Position numbers and translations under genes: made by a program
Part shown: positions 18,034-37,529 of the stretch, one piece after another
Numbering within the stretch: position 1 is the first letter of the stretch
Layout: each line of letters begins with the position of its first letter
DNA from: an uncultured Pseudomonadota bacterium
GTDB lineage: Bacteria > Oederibacteriota > Muellerivitia > Muellerivitales > Muellerivitaceae
Length of the DNA stretch: 64,000 nucleotides
NCBI GenBank assembly: GCA_963843375.1
Contig: CAWJKT010000001.1
Coordinates: 1-64,000 of the forward strand
Reading direction: 5' to 3'
The notes under the pieces: generated by a model
What the model was told of the DNA's origin: nothing
The model's database searches: none
The model's input: only the letters and a program-made list of their open reading frames with translations

Positions 18034-19361
18034 ATGAGCAACGAATTAGCCTTGGTGATGAGCCAGTTGGAACATACCAAGCGAATCGACAAAAAAAAGC
18101 TGGTCGAGGCGATCCAAGCCGCTTTGTCGTCGGCCGCCAAAAAAATGTACGGCGCTGCCCAAGAAGTGGATGTGGAATTCGACGAGATCAATTACGAGTT
18201 CCGCGCCTTATTACCTAAAGGAAGTAGCGGACGAAATCACCGATCCCAACACCCAATTAACCCTCTCGGAAGCGCGTAAATTAGACAAAGAAGCCGAAGT
18301 GGGAGGCGTCATCAAGGTCCGCATTCCCGCCGAGCAATTCGGCCGAATCGCGGCCCAAACCGCCAAGCAGGTCATCGTCCAGCGGGTTCAGGATGCCGAG
18401 CGCCAGAGCGTTTACGACCAGTTTAAGGAAAAAGAAGGCGATCTGATCACGGGAAGCGTTCTTCGTTATGAAAGCCGCAATGTCATTATTTCCCTCGGCG
18501 ATGCCGAGGCTTTGATGCCCGCCAAAGAACAGGTTCCCCGGGAACGTTATTCCACCGGGGAGCGGATGAAGTTTTTGGTTCTGGAGGTTCGAAAGACCTT
18601 AAAGGGGCCGGCCATCATCGTCAGCCGGGCCCATCCCAATCTAGTCCGCAAGCTTTTTGAATTGGAAGTTCCCGAGATTTACGAAGGAGCCGTGAAAATC
18701 GAAAGCGTGGCCCGCGAAGCCGGGGCCCGCACAAAAATATCCGTCCGTTCCATGGGAGACGACCGTATTGACGCGGTCGGCGCCTGCGTGGGGGTGAAAG
18801 GCATCCGTGTCCAAAACATCGTGGACGAAATCCGCGGGGAAAAAGTGGACATCGTCCGTTGGGATGAAGAGCCTCACAATTATCTTTCCAACGCCCTATC
18901 GCCCGCCAAGATAGCCCGCATTATTTTCCATCCTGAAATACCCTCGGCCGAAGTCATCGTGCCCAACGACCAGTTGTCGTTGGCCATCGGCAAGAAAGGC
19001 CAAAACGCCCGCTTGGCTGCCCGCTTGACCGGAATCAAAATCGACATCAAAAATGAGGAACAACACACCCAGGAAGAACGCGCCCGCATGGACGCCCACT
19101 TCCAGGAGATCCAACAAGAAGTTCCCCAGGATCTGGCCGGAGGCCAATATTGAGGCTCCTTCCGCTGGAGCCGCGGCTTCTTTGACTGACGAGTCGAGAA
19201 AAGACGCTCCACCCGATGAGATTGACGAGGGTGCTGTAAAGGGTGAGGCGGTCCCAGAGGCTCCCGAACTGACCAAGGACCAGACCGGAATCCCGACTAT
19301 TCCTCCTTCACCGGAGGTCACGGGATCGATGGCTCCGGGTCCAGAAGGCCAGGAGGATTAA
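18034..19361 (+). CDS. nusA: Transcription factor NusA (frameshifts near 18210 and probably 19140)
   Basis: FGRIAAQTAKQVIVQ, LFELEVPEI, AREAGARTKI, SLAIGKKGQNARLAARLTG. An acidic tail to 19361 is likely in frame after correction. Confidence 0.93.
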
Positions 19362-19367
19362 CCAACC

Positions 19368-21665
19368 ATGGGTAAACGCCTTTTTGAATTCGCCAAGGAA
19401 CTAGGTCTTACTAGCAAGGATGTGCTGGAACGTTGCAAAAAGCTGGGCCACAACATTCCCAGCCAATTAACCGTCGTTGACGATAAAATCCAATCCGATA
19501 TTCGCCGCGATTTGGGAATGGCCGACTTGAATGCCCCTTCCGTCGGCGCTGCCGCACCGGCCTCCACTGCCACGGCCATCCGCACACCGGCCCCCAAAAC
19601 GCCCGCGACCACCTCTGCTTCACCTCTGCCCGCGACGGCAACCCGTACCATGGTTAAACCTGTCACCGGCTTGTCCGCCCCCACGGCCACTTATCCAACC
19701 TTGAAACCTACCGGCACTCAAAACCGCCCCTCGACCGGCCATGGTTCCCCGTAAAAGCGGACCGGGGCCCAGACACATGCCAGTTAAATCGGGTGGCCAC
19801 GGTTTAGCCGCGGGCCGTCCCAAAAGCGTGACCTCCGTCGTGAAAGAGGCTGTTGAGGAAAAACCCAAGGTTGAAGAACTCAACGCCGATGGGACTCCCG
19901 TTGAACCCAAGGTTCTTACGAAGATCAAAATCTCCGAGGGCATTACGGTTTCGGAACTGGCGCAAAAACTCAATGTCAAAGCGGGTGTTCTCATTAAAGA
20001 ACTGCTCGATCTCAAAATTTTGGCTACCATCAACCAGCGGGTGGATATGCCCGTCGCCGAAACTCTTGCTTCCGCCCATAATGCCGAAGTGGAAGTTGTC
20101 CCTCTTTATGGGGCCGAAATGTTCCAGGATACCCCGGATGACCCCAAGGATCTGCTGCCCCGTTCGCCGGTCGTCACAATCATGGGACATGTGGACCATG
20201 GAAAAACCCTTCTTTTGGACGCCATCCGCAAGACCAAGGTGGCAGAGGGGGAAGCGGGCGGAATCACCCAGCATATCGGCGCTTATCAGGTAAAACAGGA
20301 AAAAGGATCCATCACCTTTCTGGATACCCCGGGCCATGAAGCCTTTACGCTCATGCGCGCCCGCGGCGCCAAGGCCACGGATATCGTGGTTCTTGTAGTC
20401 GCCGCTGATGACGGTGTCATGCCTCAAACTTTAGAAGCGATCGACCACGCCAAGGAAGCCAAGGTGCCCATCATCGTGGCCATCAATAAGATCGACAAAC
20501 CTGAAGCTAATCCGGACCGAGTGAAAACCCAAGTGGCGGAACGAGGCCTCGTGCCTGAGGAATGGGGCGGGACGACCATTTTCGTTGAGGTTTCAGCTAA
20601 AAAACGCCTGAACCTGGACAAACTGCTGGAGATGATTTTTTGCAGGCGGAAGTTTTGGAACTCAAAGCAAATCCAAACCGCGCACCGAAGGGTGTTGTTT
20701 TGGAAGCTCGCTTGGATAAGGGGCGGGGTCCTGTCGCCACTTTCCTTGTTGAAAAAGGAACGCTCAAAATCGGAGACGATATTATCGCCGGAAGTACCTA
20801 TGGCCGCATCAAAGCCATGCACGACGATTTAGGGAAGCCGGTCAAGTCGGCCACGCCCGCTACTCCTGTTGAAATTTTAGGTTTGAATGACGTGCCCCAA
20901 GCCGGGGATGTGTTTTATGGGGTGGAAGACGCTAAAGTCGCCCGGGAAATCGCCATGCGCCGTACCGAAGCTCGCAAGGATAACCGTCTGGTCGGAGCAA
21001 TGAAACATATCACCCTCGATAATCTTTTCGAGCAGATCAAGGAAGGACAGATTAAGGAACTTAAAGTCATTGTTAAGGCCGATGTGCAGGGATCAGTGGA
21101 AGCCCTTACCCAGTCTCTTGAAAAACTTTCAACCGGAAAGGTTGTTTTAAGAGTCATTCGTAGCGGTACGGGAAACATCGTCAATTCCGATATCCTGCTA
21201 GCTTCCGCCTCCAATGCTATCGTAGTTGGGTTCAATGTGAAGGCTGATTCCAACGCCAAGTCCACTGCCGAAAGGGAAGACGTGGATGTAAGGGTTTACA
21301 AGATTATTTACGACGCGGTCGAGGATGTCCGCAAAGCGATGGAAGGCCTTCTGGAGCCGACTTATCGTCCCTTGACCATCGGCAAAGCGGAAGTGCGCCA
21401 AATATTCAGTACGCCCAAGGGAACCATTGCTGGTTCCATGGTGACCTCCGGCAAAATCACCAGCAAAGCCAAAGTGAAAGTCCTTCGGGCCGAGGAAGTT
21501 GTTTTCGAGGGCGCCCTTAAGTCTTTGCGGCGTTTTAAGGATGATGTGAAGGAAGTGACCAACGGCTACGAGTGCGGTATCGGTATTGATGGTTTCGATG
21601 ATATCCAAGTTGGGGACCAGCTCGAAATTTACATCATGGAAGCCGTCGCCCAGAAACTTGAATAA
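19368..21665 (+). CDS. infB: Translation initiation factor IF-2 (frameshifts near 19738 and 20640)
   Basis: IF2_[54 protein letters not shown]. Confidence 0.96.
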
Positions 21666-21681
21666 AAACTGTTTAAAGCCT

Positions 21682-21771
21682 CACGCGAATTCCACCTTAT
21701 CCAAAAGGTTGGATCTTTTGGATGATGAAGCGGATTTACAAGTCACCGGGGTTCAAACGGAGTTTTTGTAA
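21682..21771 (+). pseudogene. Probable C-terminal remnant of a DUF503/YlxP-family gene
   Basis: HANSTLSKRLDLLDDEADLQVTGVQTEFL* with no start codon, in the slot between infB and rbfA where ylxP usually sits. Confidence 0.45.
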
Positions 21772-21788
21772 AAGGTTGGTGAGTCGAT

Positions 21789-22157
21789 ATGGGCTTTAAA
21801 CGGGCGGATAAAGTTTCAGCTGCGATAAAAAGAGAAGTCGGGGTGATGTTGATTCAGGATGTCAAGGACCCGGGAATCCATTTTGTGACGGTCACGGGTG
21901 TGGAAACCGCGGATGATTTGCGCCATGTGAAGATATTCGTATCGATTTTAGGTGACGAAAAGACACGACAAGAAACCATGGCTGGGCTGGACCGGGCCAA
22001 GGGTTTTTTAAGGGGTGAATTAGGACGCCGTCTTCAGTTACGATATACCCCCGAAATCCAATTCCGACTAGACGAGTCGCTTGACCATGCGATGAAGATC
22101 AAAGGCATCTTGAACCAGATAAAATCCGCTGAGGAAAAATCAAGCGATGAAGCTTAA
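21789..22157 (+). CDS. rbfA: Ribosome-binding factor A
   Basis: KDPGIHFVTVTGVE...DLRHVKIFVS...GFLRGELGRRLQLRYTPEIQF. Confidence 0.95.
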   Translation: MGFKRADKVSAAIKREVGVMLIQDVKDPGIHFVTVTGVETADDLRHVKIFVSILGDEKTRQETMAGLDRAKGFLRGELGRRLQLRYTPEIQFRLDESLDHAMKIKGILNQIKSAEEKSSDEA

Positions 22158-23151
22158 AACGAAATCAGCACCTAAAATGTCCGCCAAATCAAAAGATAGT
22201 TCCTATGCCCAAGTCGTTAAGCTCATCAAAGACCATAATTCCTTTCTCATCACCACCCATGTCAATCCGGATGGGGACGGTTTAGGCGCCGAGTCTGCTC
22301 TTTTCGCGGCATTGCGCAAGCTGGGAAAAAAAGTGCAAGTGGTAAACCATGACCCTCTCCCCTACAAGTTTGACTTCCTGGCCTTCACCCCCTTCTATCA
22401 AGCCAGTGATATTATTCCTGACCACGAGGTTTGCTTCGTCCTCGATGCGGGGGATTTCAGCCGCATCCGCGAAGGGGTCCAAAGAAAAGAGTTCACCACC
22501 CTCGTAAATATCGACCACCATTATTCCAACGATCGCTACGGAAACTACAACCTGGTGGTTCCGGAGGCTGCGGCGACAGGCGAGGTGGTTTATGAGTTGA
22601 TAAAAGCCATGAAGGTCAAGGTGGATAAGGACATCGCCCAGGGGATTTACACCTCGATCGTCACCGATACCGGCCGGTTTCGTTATCCCAGCACGACCCC
22701 CCGGATCTTTCGGTTAGCGGCCGACTTGGAGGAAGCGGGCGCGAATGTCTCCCAAATCAGCGAGAGTATATTCGGCGACATCAGCAAGGAAGCCCTTGAG
22801 TTGACCCGCTTAGCCCTGGCGAGCATTCATACCACCGACAAAGGGGCCATCGGGACCATGACATTGACCCTGGGCGATTTTATTAAGTCTAAGGCTTCCG
22901 ATGACGACACGGAAAACCTCATTAATTTGGTGCGCAATCTGGATACGGTTCAAATCGCCGCCTTCCTCAAGGAAAGGTCCGACGGCCGGATCAAGCTTTC
23001 CCTTCGTTCCAAAAACGGGATCAATGTGGCGAACGTGGCGAAACTTTTCGGTGGAGGCGGGCATTCCTACGCCGCCGGAGCCGTTCTTGAGGGGCCTTTA
23101 GATAAGGCCTTAAAGGCCGTATTGACCGCCTGCCAATCGGTCCTTAAGTAA
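22147..23151 (+). CDS. nrnA: DHH/DHHA1 phosphoesterase (NrnA-like oligoribonuclease/pAp phosphatase)
   Basis: HVNPDGDGLG, NIDHH, TDTGRF, SLRSK, GGGGHSYAAG. Confidence 0.88.
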   Translation: MKLKTKSAPKMSAKSKDSSYAQVVKLIKDHNSFLITTHVNPDGDGLGAESALFAALRKLGKKVQVVNHDPLPYKFDFLAFTPFYQASDIIPDHEVCFVLDAGDFSRIREGVQRKEFTTLVNIDHHYSNDRYGNYNLVVPEAAATGEVVYELIKAMKVKVDKDIAQGIYTSIVTDTGRFRYPSTTPRIFRLAADLEEAGANVSQISESIFGDISKEALELTRLALASIHTTDKGAIGTMTLTLGDFIKSKASDDDTENLINLVRNLDTVQIAAFLKERSDGRIKLSLRSKNGINVANVAKLFGGGGHSYAAGAVLEGPLDKALKAVLTACQSVLK

Positions 23152-23192
23152 TCCAACCGCTTCTTTCCAAAAAACCCTAAAGTGAAACTGCT

Positions 23193-24077
23193 ATGGACGG
23201 GGTCCTTAATTTAAACAAACCTTCCTCCTGGACTTCCCATGATGTCGTGGCAAAGACCCGCGGAATCCTGAAAGAAAAGAAAATCGGCCATTTGGGGACA
23301 TTGGATCCCCTGGCGACGGGGGTTTTACCCTTAGCCGTGGGAGGGGCGACTCGGCTTCTGGAATTCGCTTCCTATTCCAAGGAATATATAACGACTTGTC
23401 TTCTAGGAAAATCCACCGATAGCTATGATATTTCGGGAAAAGTATTAGAAGAGAAACCTATAGGAAACCTTGTGCCGGAACAAATCAAGGAATCCGTTCT
23501 TAAACTTCAAGCCCTAACCCAGCAGGTGCCACCCATGGTTTCGGCGGTTAAACAAGGGGGGCGAAAGCTTTATGAGTTGGCCCGCCGAGGTATGGTCGTT
23601 GAGCGTCAAGCCCGTCCAATTCGAATCGAAATCATGGAAATCATTCAAATTGATTTACCCCGGGTATCTTTTCGGGTCACCTGTTCACCGGGTACTTACG
23701 TGAGATCCTTATGTCAAACCCTTGGGGAATCCTTGGGTGTGGGCGGATGCATGGAAAAACTGGAAAGGACCCAAGTGGGGCCCTTTTTTTTGAAAGACGC
23801 CATGACCCTGGAGGATTTGAAAAAAAACGTGGAGGATGGAAATCTTTCGGGTATCTTGTTTCCGCCCAGCCGGCTGGCCCAACATCTGCCGGAATTGACA
23901 ATTGAGGAGCTTTCGCTTCAACGCCTCTGCGAGGGCCAAAAGCTGAGAATCCCCGGTCATTCCCCCGGGCTTTATCGTGTCATGAACGGCCAAGGAAAAA
24001 TCAGTGCTATCGCCCGGGTTTCACCTGATGGGGAAGTGCGGCCGGATAAAGTATTCGGCTTGGAAGGAATGCTTTGA
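23193..24077 (+). CDS. truB: tRNA pseudouridine(55) synthase
   Basis: TSHDVV, KIGHLGTLDPLATGVL, PPMVSAVKQGGRKLYELAR, GTYVRSL. Confidence 0.96.
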   Translation: MDGVLNLNKPSSWTSHDVVAKTRGILKEKKIGHLGTLDPLATGVLPLAVGGATRLLEFASYSKEYITTCLLGKSTDSYDISGKVLEEKPIGNLVPEQIKESVLKLQALTQQVPPMVSAVKQGGRKLYELARRGMVVERQARPIRIEIMEIIQIDLPRVSFRVTCSPGTYVRSLCQTLGESLGVGGCMEKLERTQVGPFFLKDAMTLEDLKKNVEDGNLSGILFPPSRLAQHLPELTIEELSLQRLCEGQKLRIPGHSPGLYRVMNGQGKISAIARVSPDGEVRPDKVFGLEGML

Positions 24078-24979
24078 AAAAACCAATCGTTCTTACTATC
24101 GGTGTTTTTGACGGAGTTCATTTGGGTCATCAGACCCTTGTTGGTGAAACAGTCAAAATGGCGACCGGTTTAAACGCTGTTCCCGTCGCCGTGACATTCC
24201 AAGATCATCCCATGCATGTGCTAAAGGGCGGGCCTTATATTCCTTTTCTTTTACCTCGGAAAGAAACCTTTCGGCTTTTGAAGGAAGGGGGGATCCGAAG
24301 GGTCCATGTACTCCGGTTCACTCGCGCCTTCTCCCAAAAGACCCCGGAACAGTTTGTCAATTGGTTGGGAAGATTAGGGACTTTAAAAGGGATCGTGGTA
24401 GGAGAGGACTTCCGGTTCGGGCACGGGGCCAAGGGTGATGTGGCGCTTTTAAAGCGCTTGGGAAAAGAAACGGGTTTTGAAGTCAAAGCGATGAAGTCTG
24501 TTCGGGTGAAAGGGATAGCGGTTTCTTCCAGCCGGATCAGGGAGTTGTTATCCCAAGGTGAAACCGGGTTGGCCAATCGGTTATTGGGAAAGTCTTATTC
24601 CATCAAGGGTGAAGTCATCCACGGAAAGCATGTGGGCAACCAGATCGGTTTTCCCACCGCCAACCTGGGTCATATTGGCGAATTCCTTCCGAGGGACGGA
24701 GTTTACGCCTGCACCGTAAAATTGGGCTCAAAGTATTACCGCGCCGGAATGAATTTGGGCAAACGCCCAACTTTTAAGGAAGACGACCACCATCGCCAAG
24801 CCGAAGTACATCTGCTTCATTATTACGGACGACTCTACGGCCGGAAGATGAGGGTGTACTTACAAAAATATTTAAGGCCGGAGAAAAAATTTTCCTCCCC
24901 CGCTCAGTTGGTAAAACAAATCCGTAAGGATCTGATTCAAGTCCAAAAGACACCCCTTAAGGGTTTAAAATCTGCTTAA
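24074..24979 (+). CDS. ribF: Riboflavin kinase/FAD synthetase
   Basis: IGVFDGVHLGHQ, VGEDFRFG, SSSRIR, IGFPTAN. Confidence 0.95.
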   Translation: MKKPIVLTIGVFDGVHLGHQTLVGETVKMATGLNAVPVAVTFQDHPMHVLKGGPYIPFLLPRKETFRLLKEGGIRRVHVLRFTRAFSQKTPEQFVNWLGRLGTLKGIVVGEDFRFGHGAKGDVALLKRLGKETGFEVKAMKSVRVKGIAVSSSRIRELLSQGETGLANRLLGKSYSIKGEVIHGKHVGNQIGFPTANLGHIGEFLPRDGVYACTVKLGSKYYRAGMNLGKRPTFKEDDHHRQAEVHLLHYYGRLYGRKMRVYLQKYLRPEKKFSSPAQLVKQIRKDLIQVQKTPLKGLKSA

Positions 24980-25019
24980 ATTCAAGGGTTTCGTTCTCTT
25001 AGGGAAGGGGGTAATCTCC

Positions 25020-25048
25020 TTTACACCCCCCGGTAAAGTCCATAGAAT
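25020..25048 (+). promoter_or_regulatory. Putative sigma70 promoter of rpsO-pnp
   Basis: TTTACA-N17-TAGAAT. Confidence 0.65.
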
Positions 25049-25180
25049 ACAGCCCCTGCGTCCGATCTTTGGGCGTGTGTTCGCAAGGCGATGATCCTTT
25101 ACTCGGCCCTCGTCCACTCTGACGATCGCTTGGTTTCAGGGGAGTCCGGCAAAAAAATTTTAATTTGAGGAGTTGTACCC

Positions 25181-25447
25181 ATGATGACGAAAGAAAAGAA
25201 GACCCAGTTAGTTCAGGATTTCAAACAAAAGGATACGGACACCGGTTCCCCGGAAGTTCAAGTTGCCCTCGTTACCGAGCGGATCAAGTACCTGACCGAG
25301 CATTTCAAAACCCATCCCAAGGACCATGCGTCCCGCCGTGGATTGCTCAAGCTGGTCGGGCACCGGCGCCGCCTTTTGGATTACCTGAAAAAACACGATG
25401 TGAAGCGTTATGCCACGCTCCTCGATCGTTTGGGTCTCCGCAAATAA
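25181..25447 (+). CDS. rpsO: 30S ribosomal protein S15
   Basis: [39 protein letters not shown]. Confidence 0.98.
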
Positions 25448-25570
25448 GGGAAGCAGATTTAACCACGACGGAACCAAGGGCCCCACGAAAGACTATTGGG
25501 AGCCCAAGGCCCTAAGCGGTTCACTCTAATTTCCAACGTCACCAACCTTAAACAATCTGGAGGAGTCAAA

Positions 25571-27684
25571 ATGATGGAACGTGTCAGCTGTAAATTGTCT
25601 CAAGCGACTTTATCTTTCGAAACGGGTCGCATGGCGAAGCAAGCCGACGGGTCAATCCTGGCCCAATATGGTGAAACCGTGGTCCTGGTGGCCGTGGTCG
25701 GAGCCAAAGAACCCATGCCGGGCAAGGACTTTTTCCCGCTCACCGTCGAGTATCGCGAGAAGTCCTCTTCCGCAGGCCGTATTCCCGGCGGCTGGTTCAA
25801 GCGCGAAGGCCGTCCTCGCACCAAGGAAATCCTTACCTCCCGACTCATTGACCGCCCCATCCGCCCGCTTTTCCCCGACGGTTTCTTCAATGAAGTCCAG
25901 ATGCATTGCACGGTCATTTCCTCCGACCAAGAAAATGATTCCGACGTGCTGGCAGTTTCCGCCGCCTCGGCGGCCTTGGCGGTTTCCGACATCCCGGTGG
26001 CCGACATGTTCGGTTGCGTTCGGGTGGGCCGCATAAAGGGCGACCTGGTTGTCAATCCAACCTTCAAGCAAATGGAAGAAAGCACACTGGACCTGGTGGT
26101 TGCCGCCAGCCGCAAAGCGGTGGTCATGGTCGAGGGCGGGTGCGGACGAGGAATCCGAATCGGTTTTGTACGAAGCCATTAAGCTGGCCCATAAGGAGTG
26201 CCAAAAGATCATCGATCTCCAGGAAGAACTGGTCAAGAAAGCCGGCAAACCCAAACGCGCTCTCACATTGGTGAAACCCGCCGAGGACTTGTCCGTCGCC
26301 GTCAAATCCTTCGCCCTTCCTAAAATGAAAGCCGCCATGGCCGAGAAGGACAAGCTGAAGCGCCAGGAAGGCATCCACCATGTTGGCAAGGAAACGGTTG
26401 AGGCCTTGAAAGAAAAGTTTCCTGAGAAGGAAAAGGATATTTTGGGGTTGATCCATGGCATCGAGTCCGACCTGGTCCGCGAAGCCATCCTGGACCGCCA
26501 CGAGCGCCAGGACGGACGCAAGCTCGACGAGTTCCGCCCCATCACGGGGGAAGTGAAAGTGCTGCCCCGCACCCATGGATCGGCGCTCTTTACCCGCGGC
26601 CAAACCCAGGCTCTGGTGGTAACTACCCTCGGCACCAAGGAAGACCAGCAGATTTTGGAGGAGCTGGAAGGTGAACAGAAAAAACGATTCATGCTGCATT
26701 ACAATTTTCCTCCTTACTCGGTGGGTGAGATCAAGCGTCTCTCGGGTCCGGGCCGCCGTGAAATCGGTCATGGCAACCTGGCGGAAAGGGCGCTGGAGCC
26801 CCTGCTCCCCTCCCTGGACGATTTCCCCTACACCATCCTGGTTTCCTCCGACATCCTGGAGTCCAATGGTTCCTCCTCCATGGCCTCGGTCTGCGGCGGT
26901 TCGCTTTCCATGATGGACGCGGGAGTGCCCTTGAAGAGCCCTTGCGCAGGCGTGGCTTTAGGGTTGGTTTCCAGCCCGGATATGTCCAAGTACGCCATTC
27001 TGACCGACATCCAGGGTTTGGAAGATCATTTCGGCGATATGGACTTCAAGGTTGCCGGTACCCGCAAGGGCATCACGGCCATCCAGATGGACATCAAGAT
27101 TACGGGTTTGCCATTCGAGGTCATCGAAAAGGGCCTGGCCCAGGCCAAGCAGGGCCGTTTGACTATCCTGGATATCATGGATAAGACCCTGACTTCCCCC
27201 AACGCGACACTTTCGCCCTATGCCCCGCGGATTGTCACCATTAAGATTCCGGTAGACAAAATCCGGGACATCATCGGCAAGGGTGGCGCGATGATCAAGA
27301 AAATCACAGGAAGATTTCCAAGTGGAAATCAACGTGGAAGATGACGGGTCGGTGAATATCGCTTCCCCCAACGGGGCCTCCATCGAGAAGGCAAAGAGCT
27401 TTATCGACGGCCTCATGGCCGAGGCCGAAGAAGGAAAGATTTATTTCGGCACTGTCAAGAAGATCATGGATTTCGGCGCTTTCGTCGAGATCCTGCCGGG
27501 CACTGACGGCTTGGTGCATATTTCCCAACTGGACAAGCGCCGGGTGGAACGGGTGGAGGATGTCCTGAAGGAAGGCGACGAGCTTTTGGTCAAGTGCATC
27601 GGGATCGACCCGAAAACCAAGAAGATCAAGCTTTCCCGCAAGGAAGCCCTTGGTTTGAACATTGCCGATTACAAAAAACTTTAA
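25571..27684 (+). CDS. pnp: Polyribonucleotide nucleotidyltransferase (frameshifts near 26142 and 27310)
   Basis: [52 protein letters not shown] and S1 domains. Confidence 0.96.
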
Positions 27685-27742: not shown

Positions 27743-27761
27743 GTGTAAAATAAAATTACAC
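27743..27761. promoter_or_regulatory. Palindromic GTGTAA-N7-TTACAC site, candidate binding site of the downstream sigma54 activator
   Basis: GTGTAAAATAAAATTACAC has the same arms as the site at 30165-30183. Confidence 0.6.
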
Positions 27762-27763
27762 TC

Positions 27764-28219
27764 TTGAAACTATGCCATGACCGCCATGTGGGGGTATTGC
27801 TCTTGCAAAAGACCATGCTGAAAAATGTCGACTGGGGCGGCCTGACGATCGTGAATCTCCTGGGCGTTCTGGCCTTTCCCCCTTACTTTATTTACTTAAT
27901 GACCTTGGCGGCCTTAACCGCGTCGGGATTTCTCTGGACAACCCATTTATCCGAGGCGGACCAACAGCGCTTCATCGAATTCGAGAAAGAATTCCGCAAG
28001 GGCTACAAGTTGGAAAAAGCCGGGAAGCTCAAAGAAGCTCTGGCTTGGTACCTCAAACTGAAAAAGCGTTACGCCAACCATCCACAGGCAAACCATTTAA
28101 TAGCCCTCCAGATCGAAAAACTCGGGACTCTCAACGGGAAACCACCCGGCGGAAAGTCCCCGAAAACTCCACGTCTTTCAAAGAAATCGTCGCCTAAGAC
28201 GAAGAAAGCGGGGGGGTAA
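27764..28219 (+). CDS. Hypothetical membrane protein with a TPR-like helix pair and Lys-rich tail (start may be ATG 27816)
   Basis: Two hydrophobic segments, then GYKLEKAGKLKEALAWY. Ends 3 nt before the next gene. Confidence 0.6.
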   Translation: MKLCHDRHVGVLLLQKTMLKNVDWGGLTIVNLLGVLAFPPYFIYLMTLAALTASGFLWTTHLSEADQQRFIEFEKEFRKGYKLEKAGKLKEALAWYLKLKKRYANHPQANHLIALQIEKLGTLNGKPPGGKSPKTPRLSKKSSPKTKKAGG

Positions 28220-28222
28220 CCC

Positions 28223-30100
28223 ATGGCCGATTTTATCTGTCGTGAATGCGGGAATCCTCTGGACGAGGAACACCGGTTTTGCCCGGTGTGTGGGGCCGCC
28301 CATGAGGCAGTCGAGAAGGCCACAGAAGAAGGCGTGGCCGCCTTTGAGGAAGGAGAATATGAAAAGGCCCTCAAACTGTTCAAATCCGTGGTCAAGAAAA
28401 ACCCATTTAGCGCTTTTGCCCTTCGGGACGCGGGACATGCGTCCTTCCATTTGCAGGATTTCAGCACCGCATTGGATTATTACGAAAAGGCCCTGAAAAT
28501 CCACCCCGCCCTCCTGGACGTTCATTTCAACATCGGTTTGATTCACATGAAAAGGGGCCATGTCAATGACGCAATGTTTTCATTCATGGAGGCCCTTCAC
28601 CTGATCCATCCCCTGACGCCCGGCAGTTTTTACCTGGGACTTTTTCACACGGCCGAAAACTTATCCTTTCAGTGCCGGATGAACCTGGGAACCTTGTTCA
28701 AGGAAAAGGGGGATTTGGAAAAGGCCCTGGACCAATATCAATTAGTGATCGATTCCAATCCCCGGAATTTCGTCGCCCTGGGCAGCCTGGGGGAATGCCT
28801 GATGGCTTTGGAAAGGTACGATGAAGCTATCAAGATTTATCGGAAGGCCCTCAAGATCTTACCCGCGGGAGAGGAAAGGTTGAACATCCAAAACGACCTG
28901 GGTATTTGTTATTTCAAAAAGGGTGAATTGGAAAAGGCCATCACCGAGTTCAAGGCCGTGTTGAAAGTGAATCCCGATCATGTGAACGCCATCTACAATC
29001 TGGGGCAGGTTTATTTTCACGAGGGACTGACCGGGCGGATGAAGGAAGACTATGAAGAGTTCGTGAAATCCTCCAAGAACGCTGCTTCCATTCTCTTCGC
29101 CTTATCCAAGTCCATGGTGTCAGTGGCGGCGGCGCAAAAAAGCCGCCCAGCGGAAGAGAGTCTTCTGATCGGTAACAGTTTGGTCATGCTTCGGATCCAG
29201 GATCTGATTAAGCGGGCGGCAGCCAGCGACGCGACGGTGCTGATTTTGGGGGAAAACGGCACGGGAAAAGAGCTGGTAGCTCGTTCCATCCACCAGCAAT
29301 CGGCGCGTCATGACCGGCCCTTTGTCGCCCTGGCCTGCTCGGCCTTGAGCGAGTCCCTTTTGGAGAGCGAGCTTTTCGGGCATGAGATGGGGTCTTTCAC
29401 CGGGGCCATTGGGCAAAAGATCGGAAAATTCGAGGCCGCTGACCAGGGGACCGTTTTCTTGGATGAGATTGGCGAAATCTCCCTTTCCACTCAGGTCAAG
29501 CTTCTGCGGGTGCTCCAGGAAAGAGAATTTGAACGGGTGGGGGGAACAGGCACGGTGAAGATTGATATCCGGGTCATCGCCGCCACGAACCGGGATTTAA
29601 AACAAGCCATCAAGGAAGCAAAGTTCCGCGAGGATTTGTTTTATCGGCTCAACGTCATCGTAATCGATATGCCGCCCTTGCGGGAAAGGGAAGGGGATAT
29701 CCCCTTGCTGGTCAAATATTTTCTGGATCGCCTAAGAGCTAAGCGGCCGACGAGGTTCGAGGGTATTTCACAGGAAGCTTTAGAGATTATGAGACAACAC
29801 CGCTGGCCGGGGAACGTGCGGGAACTTGAAAACGTCATCGAGCGTATCGTGACCTTGAATGATGACGTGCTAATTAAGCCTGCCTATCTTCCGGAGGAAT
29901 TGACCGGAACCAAAAATACCACCTCCAAGACAATGGAAAAGCTTCCGGCAAACAGTGTTTTAGAGTCAGGAGAAAAGGATTTAATCTTCCGGGTTCTACA
30001 GGAATCCCACTTCAATAAAAAGCGGGCCGCCATCCGTTTAGGCATCAGTCGCCCAACGCTCTATCAAAAGATAAGGAAATATGGGATTGGGGTGGAGTAA
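28223..30100 (+). CDS. Sigma54-dependent enhancer-binding protein: Zn-ribbon, TPR repeats, AAA+, Fis-type HTH
   Basis: CRECG...FCPVCG; multiple TPRs; [67 protein letters not shown]. Confidence 0.92.
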
Positions 30101-30136
30101 GGATCAAAGAATAAACCTGGTCCCTATTGAAAATAG

Positions 30137-30183
30137 TGTAAAGATTATGTACAATAACTTTATAGTGTAAAAAATAATTACAC
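30137..30183. promoter_or_regulatory. Two tandem TGT-N11-ACA sites, candidate upstream activator sequences
   Basis: TGTAAAGATTATGTACA (30137-30153) and TGTAAAAAATAATTACA (30166-30182), ~70-120 nt upstream of the -24 box. Confidence 0.65.
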
Positions 30184-30254
30184 ACAATGTTAAGCGAAGT
30201 TTTTAAAAACCTTAATTTATAAGGCTTTTTGACTATGAAAAACCGCCCATGAAT

Positions 30255-30269
30255 TGGCATGGACATTGC
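30255..30269 (+). promoter_or_regulatory. Sigma54 (-24/-12) promoter
   Basis: TGGCAT-GGACA-TTGC versus consensus TGGCAC-N5-TTGC, with exact spacing, 155 nt after a sigma54 activator gene. Confidence 0.8.
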
Positions 30270-30280
30270 CTTATATAGTT

Positions 30281-30365
30281 AACAGGTAGGCCAGCGACAA
30301 CTGGTTTGCTTTCAAACAAATCAACACTCACCTCCTAGCCTCGGTCCGACCCACCGGGGCTTTTT
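30281..30365 (+). ncRNA. Candidate sigma54-dependent small RNA (~85 nt) with an exposed anti-SD motif
   Basis: 5' hairpin GTAGGCCAG/CTGGTTTGC, A/C-rich linker ending in TCACCTCCT (30328-30336), terminator AGCCTCGGT/ACCGGGGCT plus T run. Confidence 0.65.
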
Positions 30366-30366
30366 A

Positions 30367-31563
30367 TTGCTATTTTCCTGGTTTTTAAGCCAATTGGGCG
30401 CCCTTTCCCTTTGTGTTATAGTGCCTCAAGACAACCAACCATTAGCCATTCACTGCCTTTGGAGGACGCCCCTGGACGCCAACTGGATTATCTTCGCCGT
30501 CACTTTATCCCTCTCCTTGGGATTGACCCCCCTTTTTCGGAAAATCGCCTTAAGAGCCCACTTTTTAGATTCCCCTCAAGGACAGCTGAAAAAACACACC
30601 GCTCCGGTTCCTTATATGGGGGGGCTAGCCATATACTTTTCCTTTCTTTTGGGGGTGCTTTCAGCCCTCATCCTGTCTCCGCCCTCCGATTCACCCCGGG
30701 TCTTAGCCCTTTTAGCCGGGGGGACAGTAGTCGCCATCCTGGGCCTGACGGACGATCTCTTTTCACTCTCACCGGCGCTCAAATTCCTTTTCCAAATCCT
30801 AGCCGCCTCGCTTCTAATTTTCTTTGGTGTTCAATTAGAATTTTTACCGAGTCATCCTTGGCTCGCTAAGGTTTTAACCGTCTTTTGGGTGGTAGCCGTG
30901 ACGAACGCAGTTAATTTGATCGACATCATGGACGGACTGGCGGGTGGGGTGGCGGTGATCGCCTGTCTTGGCTTCGTTTTCGTCCCCTTCCTGGGGTCCC
31001 AAAGCTATGTCCCGATGGCGGCGGCGGCATTGGGGGGAAGCGTTCTTGGATTTCTTCCCTATAACTATCAACCAGCCCGAATCTATATGGGGGATTCGGG
31101 GGCCCTTTTCCTGGGTTTCATTCTCGCTGGAATCGCCATGGGCCACGGTTATACCCAAATCAACGTAGTGGCCCTTTGCGCGCCCCTTTTCATTTTGGGA
31201 ATTCCCCTTTACGACACGGCGTTGGTGATGTTTTTGAGGTTTTTGAAAGGGCGGTCCATGTTCCGGGGTTCCAACGACCATCTGGCCTTGAGGTTGCGTT
31301 CACTGGGTATGTCGGTGAAACAAATCACTTGGACTCTGTGGAGCCTTTCGGTCTTGCTCATCTTCTGCGCCGGGTTGCTGGTGCGGCTTTCGGAAAAACG
31401 GGCCCTGTTTTTCATGGTCTTGTTTTTTTTCGCCTGCCTTCTTTTCACCGTGGCGGTTTCCACTATTCGGGTGGATGAAGGCAGGGAAAGAATGCGAGAA
31501 AATCCCTTTCGGATTTTCCTGGGGACTTCACCCAAAACCACCCGTAAAGCGAAAAGAAAGTGA
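30367..31563 (+). CDS. MraY/WecA-family polyprenyl-phosphate sugar-1-phosphate transferase (real start probably near 30472)
   Basis: KKHTAPVPYMGGLAI, LGLTDD, NAVNLIDIMDGLA, ARIYMGDSG, DHL. Confidence 0.88.
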   Translation: MLFSWFLSQLGALSLCVIVPQDNQPLAIHCLWRTPLDANWIIFAVTLSLSLGLTPLFRKIALRAHFLDSPQGQLKKHTAPVPYMGGLAIYFSFLLGVLSALILSPPSDSPRVLALLAGGTVVAILGLTDDLFSLSPALKFLFQILAASLLIFFGVQLEFLPSHPWLAKVLTVFWVVAVTNAVNLIDIMDGLAGGVAVIACLGFVFVPFLGSQSYVPMAAAALGGSVLGFLPYNYQPARIYMGDSGALFLGFILAGIAMGHGYTQINVVALCAPLFILGIPLYDTALVMFLRFLKGRSMFRGSNDHLALRLRSLGMSVKQITWTLWSLSVLLIFCAGLLVRLSEKRALFFMVLFFFACLLFTVAVSTIRVDEGRERMRENPFRIFLGTSPKTTRKAKRK

Positions 31564-37454: not shown

Positions 37455-37529
37455 TGGGGCGTCGACAAGCGGTAAGTCACCAGATTTTGGATCTGGCATT
37501 CGTAGGTTCGAATCCTACCGCCCCAGCCA
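37455..37529 (+). tRNA. tRNA-Gln (TTG)
   Basis: Cloverleaf: acceptor TGGGGCG/CGCCCCA, anticodon arm CCAGA-TTTTGGA-TCTGG, T arm GTAGG-TTCGAAT-CCTAC, encoded CCA. Confidence 0.97.

Follow-up and report, generated by a model that had tools for sequence, protein, structure and literature searches.

A conserved small RNA gene with a putative anti-Shine-Dalgarno seed behind a sigma-54 activator gene in one order of uncultured bacteria

The window analysed here is a 64,000-nucleotide (nt) stretch of DNA, positions 1 to 64,000 of the forward strand of contig CAWJKT010000001.1 (assembly GCA_963843375.1), from an uncultured bacterium of the family Muellerivitaceae. Behind the gene for a sigma-54 enhancer-binding protein (the activator), it carries a short unit at 30281-30366 (plus strand) that we read, with a probability of roughly 0.6, as the gene for an activator-dependent, trans-acting small RNA (sRNA) with an anti-Shine-Dalgarno (anti-SD) seed. 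In the proposed circuit, the TPR-domain activator would bind palindromes at 30137-30182, a third palindrome fronting its own operon, and would switch on sigma-54 RNA polymerase at a TGGCAT-N5-TTGC box. Transcription would start near 30281 and end at a strong terminator that precedes the putative promoter belonging to the next gene. The RNA would present, after a covarying 5' hairpin, an open linker of ~25 nt whose 3' end copies the anti-SD tail of 16S rRNA, and would pair in trans with strong GGAGGUGA-type Shine-Dalgarno (SD) regions, competing with the 30S subunit and lowering translation. Activator dependence, transcript ends, pairing mechanism and targets are the parts of this circuit that we infer. 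The architecture itself, in which activator, enhancer, promoter and terminated anti-SD RNA form one block of ~2.6 kb kept across one order, is supported by comparison of related sequences.

Architecture and conservation of the RNA unit

The 266-nt gap following the activator open reading frame (ORF), at 30101-30366, contains two palindromes, an A/T-rich stretch, a -24/-12 box and the terminated RNA unit, with 180 nt between the activator stop and the RNA start. Upstream activating site 1, TGT-N11-ACA (30137-30153), lies at about -144 nt from the RNA start and is kept in related loci; site 2, TGTAA-N7-TTACA (30166-30182), is 29 bp from site 1, and in related loci the palindromes sit ~90 and ~119 bp upstream of the -24 box. 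All 30 loci aligned to a covariance model of the RNA have one or more strict TGT-N11-ACA sites, and 23 of them have two. The interval between enhancer and promoter includes an A/T tract resembling TTTAWAGGSTTTTT (30216-30230, plus strand), spotted by eye in the upstream sequences of related loci, which is possibly a bending or IHF-type site. It is followed by the sigma-54 promoter TGGCAT-N5-TTGC (TGGCATGGACATTGC; 30255-30269, plus strand), which, like the other promoters described here, is a consensus match. This is the single match to TGGCAYNNNNNTTGC in the 64-kb window, with 0.17 matches expected and at least one found in 16 of 100 shuffled sequences. The TGGCA-N6-TTGC box stands in register in all 20 homologs found by BLAST, and promoter positions T4 G5 G6 C7 A8 and T15 T16 G17 C18 are invariant (20/20 aligned homologs). 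The genome contains rpoN, identified by a Sigma54_DBD match (E 2.1e-63) in a 510-amino acid (aa) open frame on contig 8. The activator, the two TGT-N11-ACA sites, the AT-rich spacer and the promoter thus all lie where a sequence-only reading of this DNA had placed them, and the rpoN gene on which that reading depended is present.

The RNA itself is ~86 nt long (82-101 nt in homologs), its start having been placed by the usual distance to the -12 GC and its end at the T run, and the covariance-model match spans 30281-30368. Its predicted fold begins with a 5' hairpin of 11 bp with a CGACAA loop (30284-30311), continues with an unpaired C/A-rich linker (30312-30336) that ends in the seed CTCACCTCCT (30327-30336), and closes with an intrinsic terminator (30337-30366), in which a 9-bp G+C-rich stem with a 7-nt loop (30337-30361) is followed by the T run. 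The terminator is almost invariant across homologs, including its GACCC loop, and every homolog has a T run of 5-9 T. For 30278-30370, the predicted minimum free energy (MFE) is -28.8 kcal/mol (z = -3.28), a stability reached by none of 200 shuffled sequences. The MFE and centroid structures both have two hairpins, the MFE structure accounts for 36% of the ensemble, and the two-hairpin fold is the MFE structure in most of the 30 homologs. The three-part anatomy of hairpin, C/A-rich linker and terminator proposed from the sequence alone is therefore borne out by the fold. In the alignment of 30 sequences to the model, pairing covers 95.3% of cells, and 9 of the 15 pairs change on both sides, including all 5 modelled pairs of the 5' hairpin; since the model shaped the alignment, these figures lean towards structure. 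The pairing and covariation values were not reached in any of 500 column shuffles, and artificially slid partners pair at 22-63%. Closed ORFs are absent in 20 of the 30 homologs, and the longest in any of them has 22 codons, in keeping with the earlier statement that the unit holds no credible ORF.

Conservation of the unit was examined by several approaches. Of 24 further genomes in the window's family, 20 matched in a BLAST search with 30100-30370, at 71-90% identity and across 14 genera, and 16 genomes representing nine other families gave no match. With a covariance model derived from 23 sequences, the RNA was located in 29 of the 30 family genomes and in the one genome of a sister family, giving a distribution of one order; the sole family genome missed is 63% complete. 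Weaker matches to the model (E >= 9e-4, in family f8 and as second matches in three family genomes) were rejected as plain gene-end terminators with neither promoter nor seed, and the RNA is single-copy in the window's genome. A degenerate pattern run against 185,579 species genomes gave 70 matches; the sigma-54 box and the T run occur together in 17 of these and are both missing from the other 53. Among the 17, 8 records are titled candidate division FCPU426, and the others carry unspecific labels. In Rfam 15, the best rows for 29900-30700 were PsrR1, STnc180 and HOTTIP_3, all at E >= 0.26, and the PsrR1 row covers the terminator part only (15.5 bits against a gathering score of 42). A gathering-score scan of the whole window returned a single gene, for a tRNA (37455-37526, plus strand), and left the RNA unit unmatched. 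The statistics of the single window are modest, and it is the conservation that argues against a chance arrangement. By these sequence comparisons, the unit is a conserved gene for a non-coding RNA. What the sequence-only reading anticipated at this level was likewise observed: the RNA unit is kept behind homologous activators (29/30 and 1/1 genomes) with its box and terminator and, in 26 of 30 homologs, its seed core, the pairs covary (9/15, 0/500 shuffles), and no described Rfam family matches.

The anti-SD seed, candidate targets and the WecA-like neighbour

The last nine nucleotides of the linker (TCACCTCCT, 30328-30336) are identical to 9 nt of the 16S rRNA 3' end GGATCACCTCCTTT of the same-genus genome G001, and also of G003 and G036, confirming the anti-SD match noticed in the initial reading; the window's own assembly has no 16S gene. 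Of the 30 homologs, 26 have CCTCC, 22 have CACCTCC and 14 have the complete 9-mer shared with the 16S tail. The seed core is predicted to be open, with a median unpaired probability of 0.99 and values of at least 0.7 in 25 of 26 sequences. Pairing in trans with SD regions is the most likely action predicted for such an RNA, a mechanism that is drawn from its anatomy and from the precedent of the NfeR1 and AbcR RNAs discussed below.

Candidate targets were sought in the window's own genome, which is 80% complete. Here the seed region finds 8 nt or more of complementarity in ~43 putative start regions, most of all (11 nt) in that of ftsA. As a conserved target ftsA was rejected and is retained as a lead only, pairing being kept in few cognate pairs. 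A genome-wide duplex scan with the linker was uninformative, its top results being G-rich repetitive coding stretches joined through long loops. The start region of the downstream glycosyltransferase gene was set aside as a specific target, offering a 5-bp GGAGG/CCUCC core in loop-ridden duplexes, and the activator start region has no conserved complement. Among the best seed matches are genes for a 257-aa IS21-type IstB helper, with copies on contig 5, at two places on contig 8, and on contigs 9 and 11; four of the copies share identical start regions with GGAGGTGA, and the contig 9 copy has a 10-nt match to the seed region.

Several observations weigh against a trans-acting anti-SD sRNA. No target is singled out by the predicted matches, as any strong SD would score alike, and complementarity of this kind does not, on paper, exceed the specificity with which the ribosome itself pairs. 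Only 7 of 26 cognate RNA/ftsA pairs keep 9 or more Watson-Crick pairs, and 4 of the 30 homologs lack CCTCC, having other C/U-rich variants instead. Searches of 4 genomes, of which 3 are 99% complete, turned up neither a Hfq nor a CsrA gene, so that no known chaperone can be named and the RNA would act without these proteins. Linker pairing alone does not explain the near-invariant loops of the terminator and the hairpin, and, as far as the alignment tells, near-invariance of the terminator including its loop is not explained by a pure terminator role either. The structure counts, moreover, come from an alignment fitted to the model, and with the same downstream gene always present, the role of the RNA may be bound to its locus.

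This downstream gene (30461-31563, plus strand) encodes a WecA/MraY-like glycosyltransferase (Pfam Glycos_transf_4; the ECA_wecA model scores below its cut-off) and has the SD sequence GGAGGA at 30461-30466 and a probable CTG start at 30472. The activator lies upstream of the RNA in 18 of 20 loci, both misses being contig ends, and the WecA-like gene lies downstream on the same strand in 19 of 20, the one miss being a contig that ends 79 nt after the RNA; in a further 10 of 10 loci, the RNA is flanked by both genes. The unit might accordingly be thought to serve the WecA-like gene, either as a sigma-54-driven leader with an attenuator or insulator or as a dedicated regulator of that mRNA. Such a role would account for the adjacency, which is seen in every locus with enough flank and only in the RNA-bearing order, no WecA-like gene having been matched downstream in 16 loci from distant families. 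It would also give meaning to the start codons, which in 29 loci are CTG in 22, TTG in 5, ATG in 1 and ACG in 1, 6-7 nt after GGAGG(A), a weak CTG start being one that would depend on GGAGGA. However, a sigma-70-like promoter, TTGGGC-17 nt-TATAGT with a TGTG extension (30394-30422, plus strand; consensus match only), lies between the terminator and the WecA-like gene, and a TGTGTTATAGT-like motif recurs behind the terminator in related loci. The distance from the RNA 3' end to the WecA-like start codon varies from 61 to 438 nt, and the terminator keeps its T run in all homologs. No competing antiterminator is seen in the MFE and centroid folds, alternative folds not having been the object of a dedicated search. 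Seed pairing to the WecA-like start region is limited to the 5-bp core, and the seed variants of four genomes are unmatched by changes in the SD of this gene. We therefore consider a function tied to the WecA-like gene unlikely. In G001, an opposite-strand 278-aa ORF (L011:1870-2706) lies between the activator and the enhancer-RNA unit, and the enhancer-promoter-RNA block is whole despite this insertion. Together with the conserved terminator, the downstream promoter and the variable spacer, the insertion leads us to read the RNA as its own transcription unit.

The activator operon and a protein gene at the same position in other families

The activator (28223-30100, plus strand; 625 aa) consists, by Pfam, of a zinc ribbon, TPR, Sigma54_activat (E 7.5e-70), AAA lid and Fis-type helix-turn-helix (HTH_8) domains. 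It has no receiver domain and is not a two-component response regulator, and from the domain order it is plausible that a signal is sensed through the TPR region. Its scores fall below every equivalog cut-off in NCBIfam, so that it is assigned to no named subfamily. Immediately upstream, an ORF of ~150 aa (27764-28219, plus strand; 151 aa as called, the true start probably being an internal ATG) encodes a product with a hydrophobic N-terminal segment and a lysine-rich tail. Its stop lies 3 nt ahead of the activator ATG, and the two are thus probably co-translated. Of 30 loci of the order, 29 have a homolog of this ORF ahead of the activator, as do all 6 of the loci examined in distant families; the ORF has no family match in Pfam or NCBIfam, and its product may be a membrane-anchored partner of the sensor. 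Just upstream of this operon lies an enhancer-type palindrome, TGTAA-N7-TTACA with an A/T spacer (27744-27760). The pattern TGTAA-N7-WTACA with an A/T-rich spacer occurs at only two places in the genome, here and at 30166-30182. In 17 of 29 related loci, a similar palindrome (at most 1 mismatch) precedes the activator start by 420-520 nt. These sites fit binding of the activator to its own promoter as well, making 27744-27760 a likely candidate for an autoregulatory site. The module closes a nusA-infB-nrnA-truB-ribF-pnp block (window 18170-27684), the end of pnp lying upstream of it in 25 of the order's 30 loci and at none of the 6 distant loci examined. Within this block, infB (19741-21665) is broken into two overlapping ORFs and pnp (25496-27684) into three, the pieces matching full-length families in order; these breaks are frameshifts that may be either assembly errors or real.

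Other families of the phylum have activators related to this one over the full length, with ~40% identity across residues 6-622 and an identical order of domains. In an activator tree (a quick tree, drawn with a midpoint root), the 27 activators of the RNA-bearing order form one clade with a Shimodaira-Hasegawa-like approximate likelihood-ratio (SH-aLRT) support of 99, which fits a single switch between protein and RNA; the tree was read without L156, L167, L179 and L180, whose branches of ~10 changes per site are almost certainly due to wrong ORFs. In the distant families, the activator is followed by repeated GTTAAC-type sites, a sigma-54 box, an SD sequence and the gene for a protein of ~62 aa. 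The box fits the strict pattern in 10 of 16 loci, with a GG-N10-GC near-match recognised by eye in most of the others, and the protein gene is present in 15 of the 16 loci (L172-L186, e.g. L173:2069-2251), the sixteenth ending at a contig edge. The consensus of the 62-aa protein starts with MTFEC.VK.GH.GAGK and includes a near-invariant GVKKG. Its profile matches 28 of 99 phylum genomes, from 13 families, and none of the 30 + 1 genomes of the RNA-bearing order. Conversely, the covariance model finds nothing real in the 28 genomes with the protein, so that RNA and protein never occur together in the genomes examined.

The 62-aa protein belongs to no Pfam family in 15 of 15 members and is rare, with 161 cluster representatives at E <= 1e-3 among 1.84 billion. 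Its structure is predicted as beta-beta-alpha-beta, with a predicted local distance difference test (pLDDT) score of 89.2. Searches with this model gave a best E of 0.57 in Foldseek, a best Z of 6.0 in VIA-align, where ribosomal proteins, PurS, T7 Gp2 (Z 5.1) and RNA polymerase epsilon (Z 4.1) appear among common small folds, and a best score of 0.86 with no family in the Atlas search. With matches as weak as these, no fold is assigned. A predicted complex between the TPR region of distant activators and the 62-aa protein scored 0.07. In G031, a 342-aa ORF (L189:661-1689) joins an activator-like TPR region in frame to the 62-aa domain and lacks the AAA+ and HTH domains, and G089 and G090 have similar TPR-62-aa frames of 350-355 aa. 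These frames have the appearance of a natural deletion-fusion, a hint that the TPR region and the 62-aa domain act together. In family f8 the 62-aa domain occurs only as a TPR fusion, and no sigma-54 promoter was seen there; the 62-aa protein is the output of the module in at least 12 families besides f8.

The alternation at this position allows the tentative suggestion that the RNA is the functional successor of the 62-aa protein under the same sensor module, a reading that is possible but doubtful, and in which the two would share one job, perhaps feedback on the activator, as the TPR-62-aa fusion hints, or perhaps the restraint of gene expression. Should the two outputs be equivalent in function, nature would here have exchanged a regulatory protein for a regulatory RNA. 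The alternation of protein and RNA behind orthologous activators is a rare opportunity to compare the two kinds of regulator as they occur in nature.

The same observations bear on what the RNA does. One could picture it as a protein-binding decoy, which either titrates a factor recognising the 16S tail or feeds back on the activator module as the 62-aa protein might. This would suit a seed that copies 9 nt of the 16S tail in place of a looser C/U-rich motif, the conservation of the GACCC and CGACAA loops beyond structural need, and the presence of a protein gene at the same locus position in other families, which in one family is fused in frame to an activator-like TPR region. A decoy is nevertheless improbable: there is no candidate binding protein, the exact 9-mer is found in only 14 of 30 homologs, and anti-SD pairing explains the unpaired C/U-rich seed with no extra assumptions. 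As for a tiny peptide gene or a functionless remnant of the 62-aa protein gene, a 10-codon TTG frame does run through the linker of the window to a TAG at 30337-30339 and other families do have a protein gene at this place, but most homologs lack any closed ORF, linker lengths differ by values that are not multiples of three, the covariance model is empty in loci with the protein gene, and the RNA is, unlike a remnant, conserved at 75-88% identity across 14 genera with compensatory changes, all of which makes this explanation scarcely credible. A trans-acting anti-SD sRNA therefore remains our preferred interpretation of the unit.

Comparison with known systems

The RNA would be the first well-supported regulatory RNA with a complete, readable control circuit in this candidate phylum, for which we know of no cultured member and no described sRNAs. 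Judged by title and abstract, the matches listed for literature naming the phylum are community surveys, metagenome or genome-recovery studies and single-cell genomics. The organism itself belongs to an uncultured, soil-type bacterial lineage. The circuit is compact and could be rebuilt in a laboratory host, and its seed copies the ribosome's own docking sequence.

Enhancer-binding proteins with a neighbouring small output gene are known from several bacteria. PspF lacks a receiver domain, binds sites overlapping its own promoter and drives the small output gene PspA adjacent to it. This feedback arrangement resembles the version of the present module that carries the 62-aa protein, with no sequence relation between them, and feedback binding of the 62-aa protein is at most suggested, by the TPR-62-aa fusion. 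In Pseudomonas, crcZ lies just downstream of cbrB, and CrcZ, an RNA of ~400 nt with A-rich motifs, acts as a sponge for proteins (Hfq/Crc). By contrast, the RNA described here is ~86 nt long, has a C/U-rich seed and comes from genomes in which no Hfq was found. LuxO of Vibrio is, like the activator here, a sigma-54 activator with an sRNA gene, that of Qrr1, adjacent to its own. The Qrr RNAs are Hfq-dependent and divergently placed, and they differ in fold and seed from the present RNA, which has no Rfam match. CbrB binds several sub-sites upstream of the sigma-54 promoter driving CrcZ (PMC6296734), and in that account an enhancer-binding protein and a sigma-54 promoter lead to an sRNA, as predicted here. 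Similarly, Qrr1 is under the control of sigma-54 and a bacterial enhancer-binding protein (PMC10162802).

The closest layout is that of Nla19 and Pxr in myxobacteria (Myxococcus xanthus), which bears out the precedent for activator-adjacent sigma-54 sRNAs cited in the sequence-only reading. The pxr gene lies directly downstream of the gene for the sigma-54-dependent regulator nla19, with what looks like its own sigma-54 promoter in the ~260-nt gap, and all pxr homologs are held between the same two flanking genes (PMC5568312). In the cited description, both systems thus have an sRNA behind its activator and fixed flanking genes. Between the two RNAs there is no sequence or model similarity, Rfam having given no match. 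The systems also differ in the RNA, Pxr having three predicted stem-loops and long and short forms (PMC5568312) whereas the present RNA has two hairpins and an open anti-SD linker, and in the activator, Nla19 being a response regulator whereas the activator here combines a zinc ribbon and TPR.

For the seed, the nearest counterparts are the 'CuKoo'-type sRNAs NfeR1 and AbcR1/2 of alpha-rhizobia, whose C/U-rich anti-SD seeds pair with ribosome-binding sites, with low specificity and very large target sets (bioRxiv 10.1101/2025.11.14.688489). Seed type is what they share, in the portions of that work cited here, with the present RNA. NfeR1 has three redundant CCUCCUCCC motifs in hairpins (bioRxiv 10.1101/2025.11.14.688489), whereas the RNA of the window has a single motif in a linear linker beside the terminator and, set beside the alpha-rhizobial sRNAs as described there, a sigma-54-driven, activator-adjacent layout. 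In terms of sequence and layout, the RNA is thus a new family of a known kind, that of sRNA genes adjacent to their sigma-54 activators.

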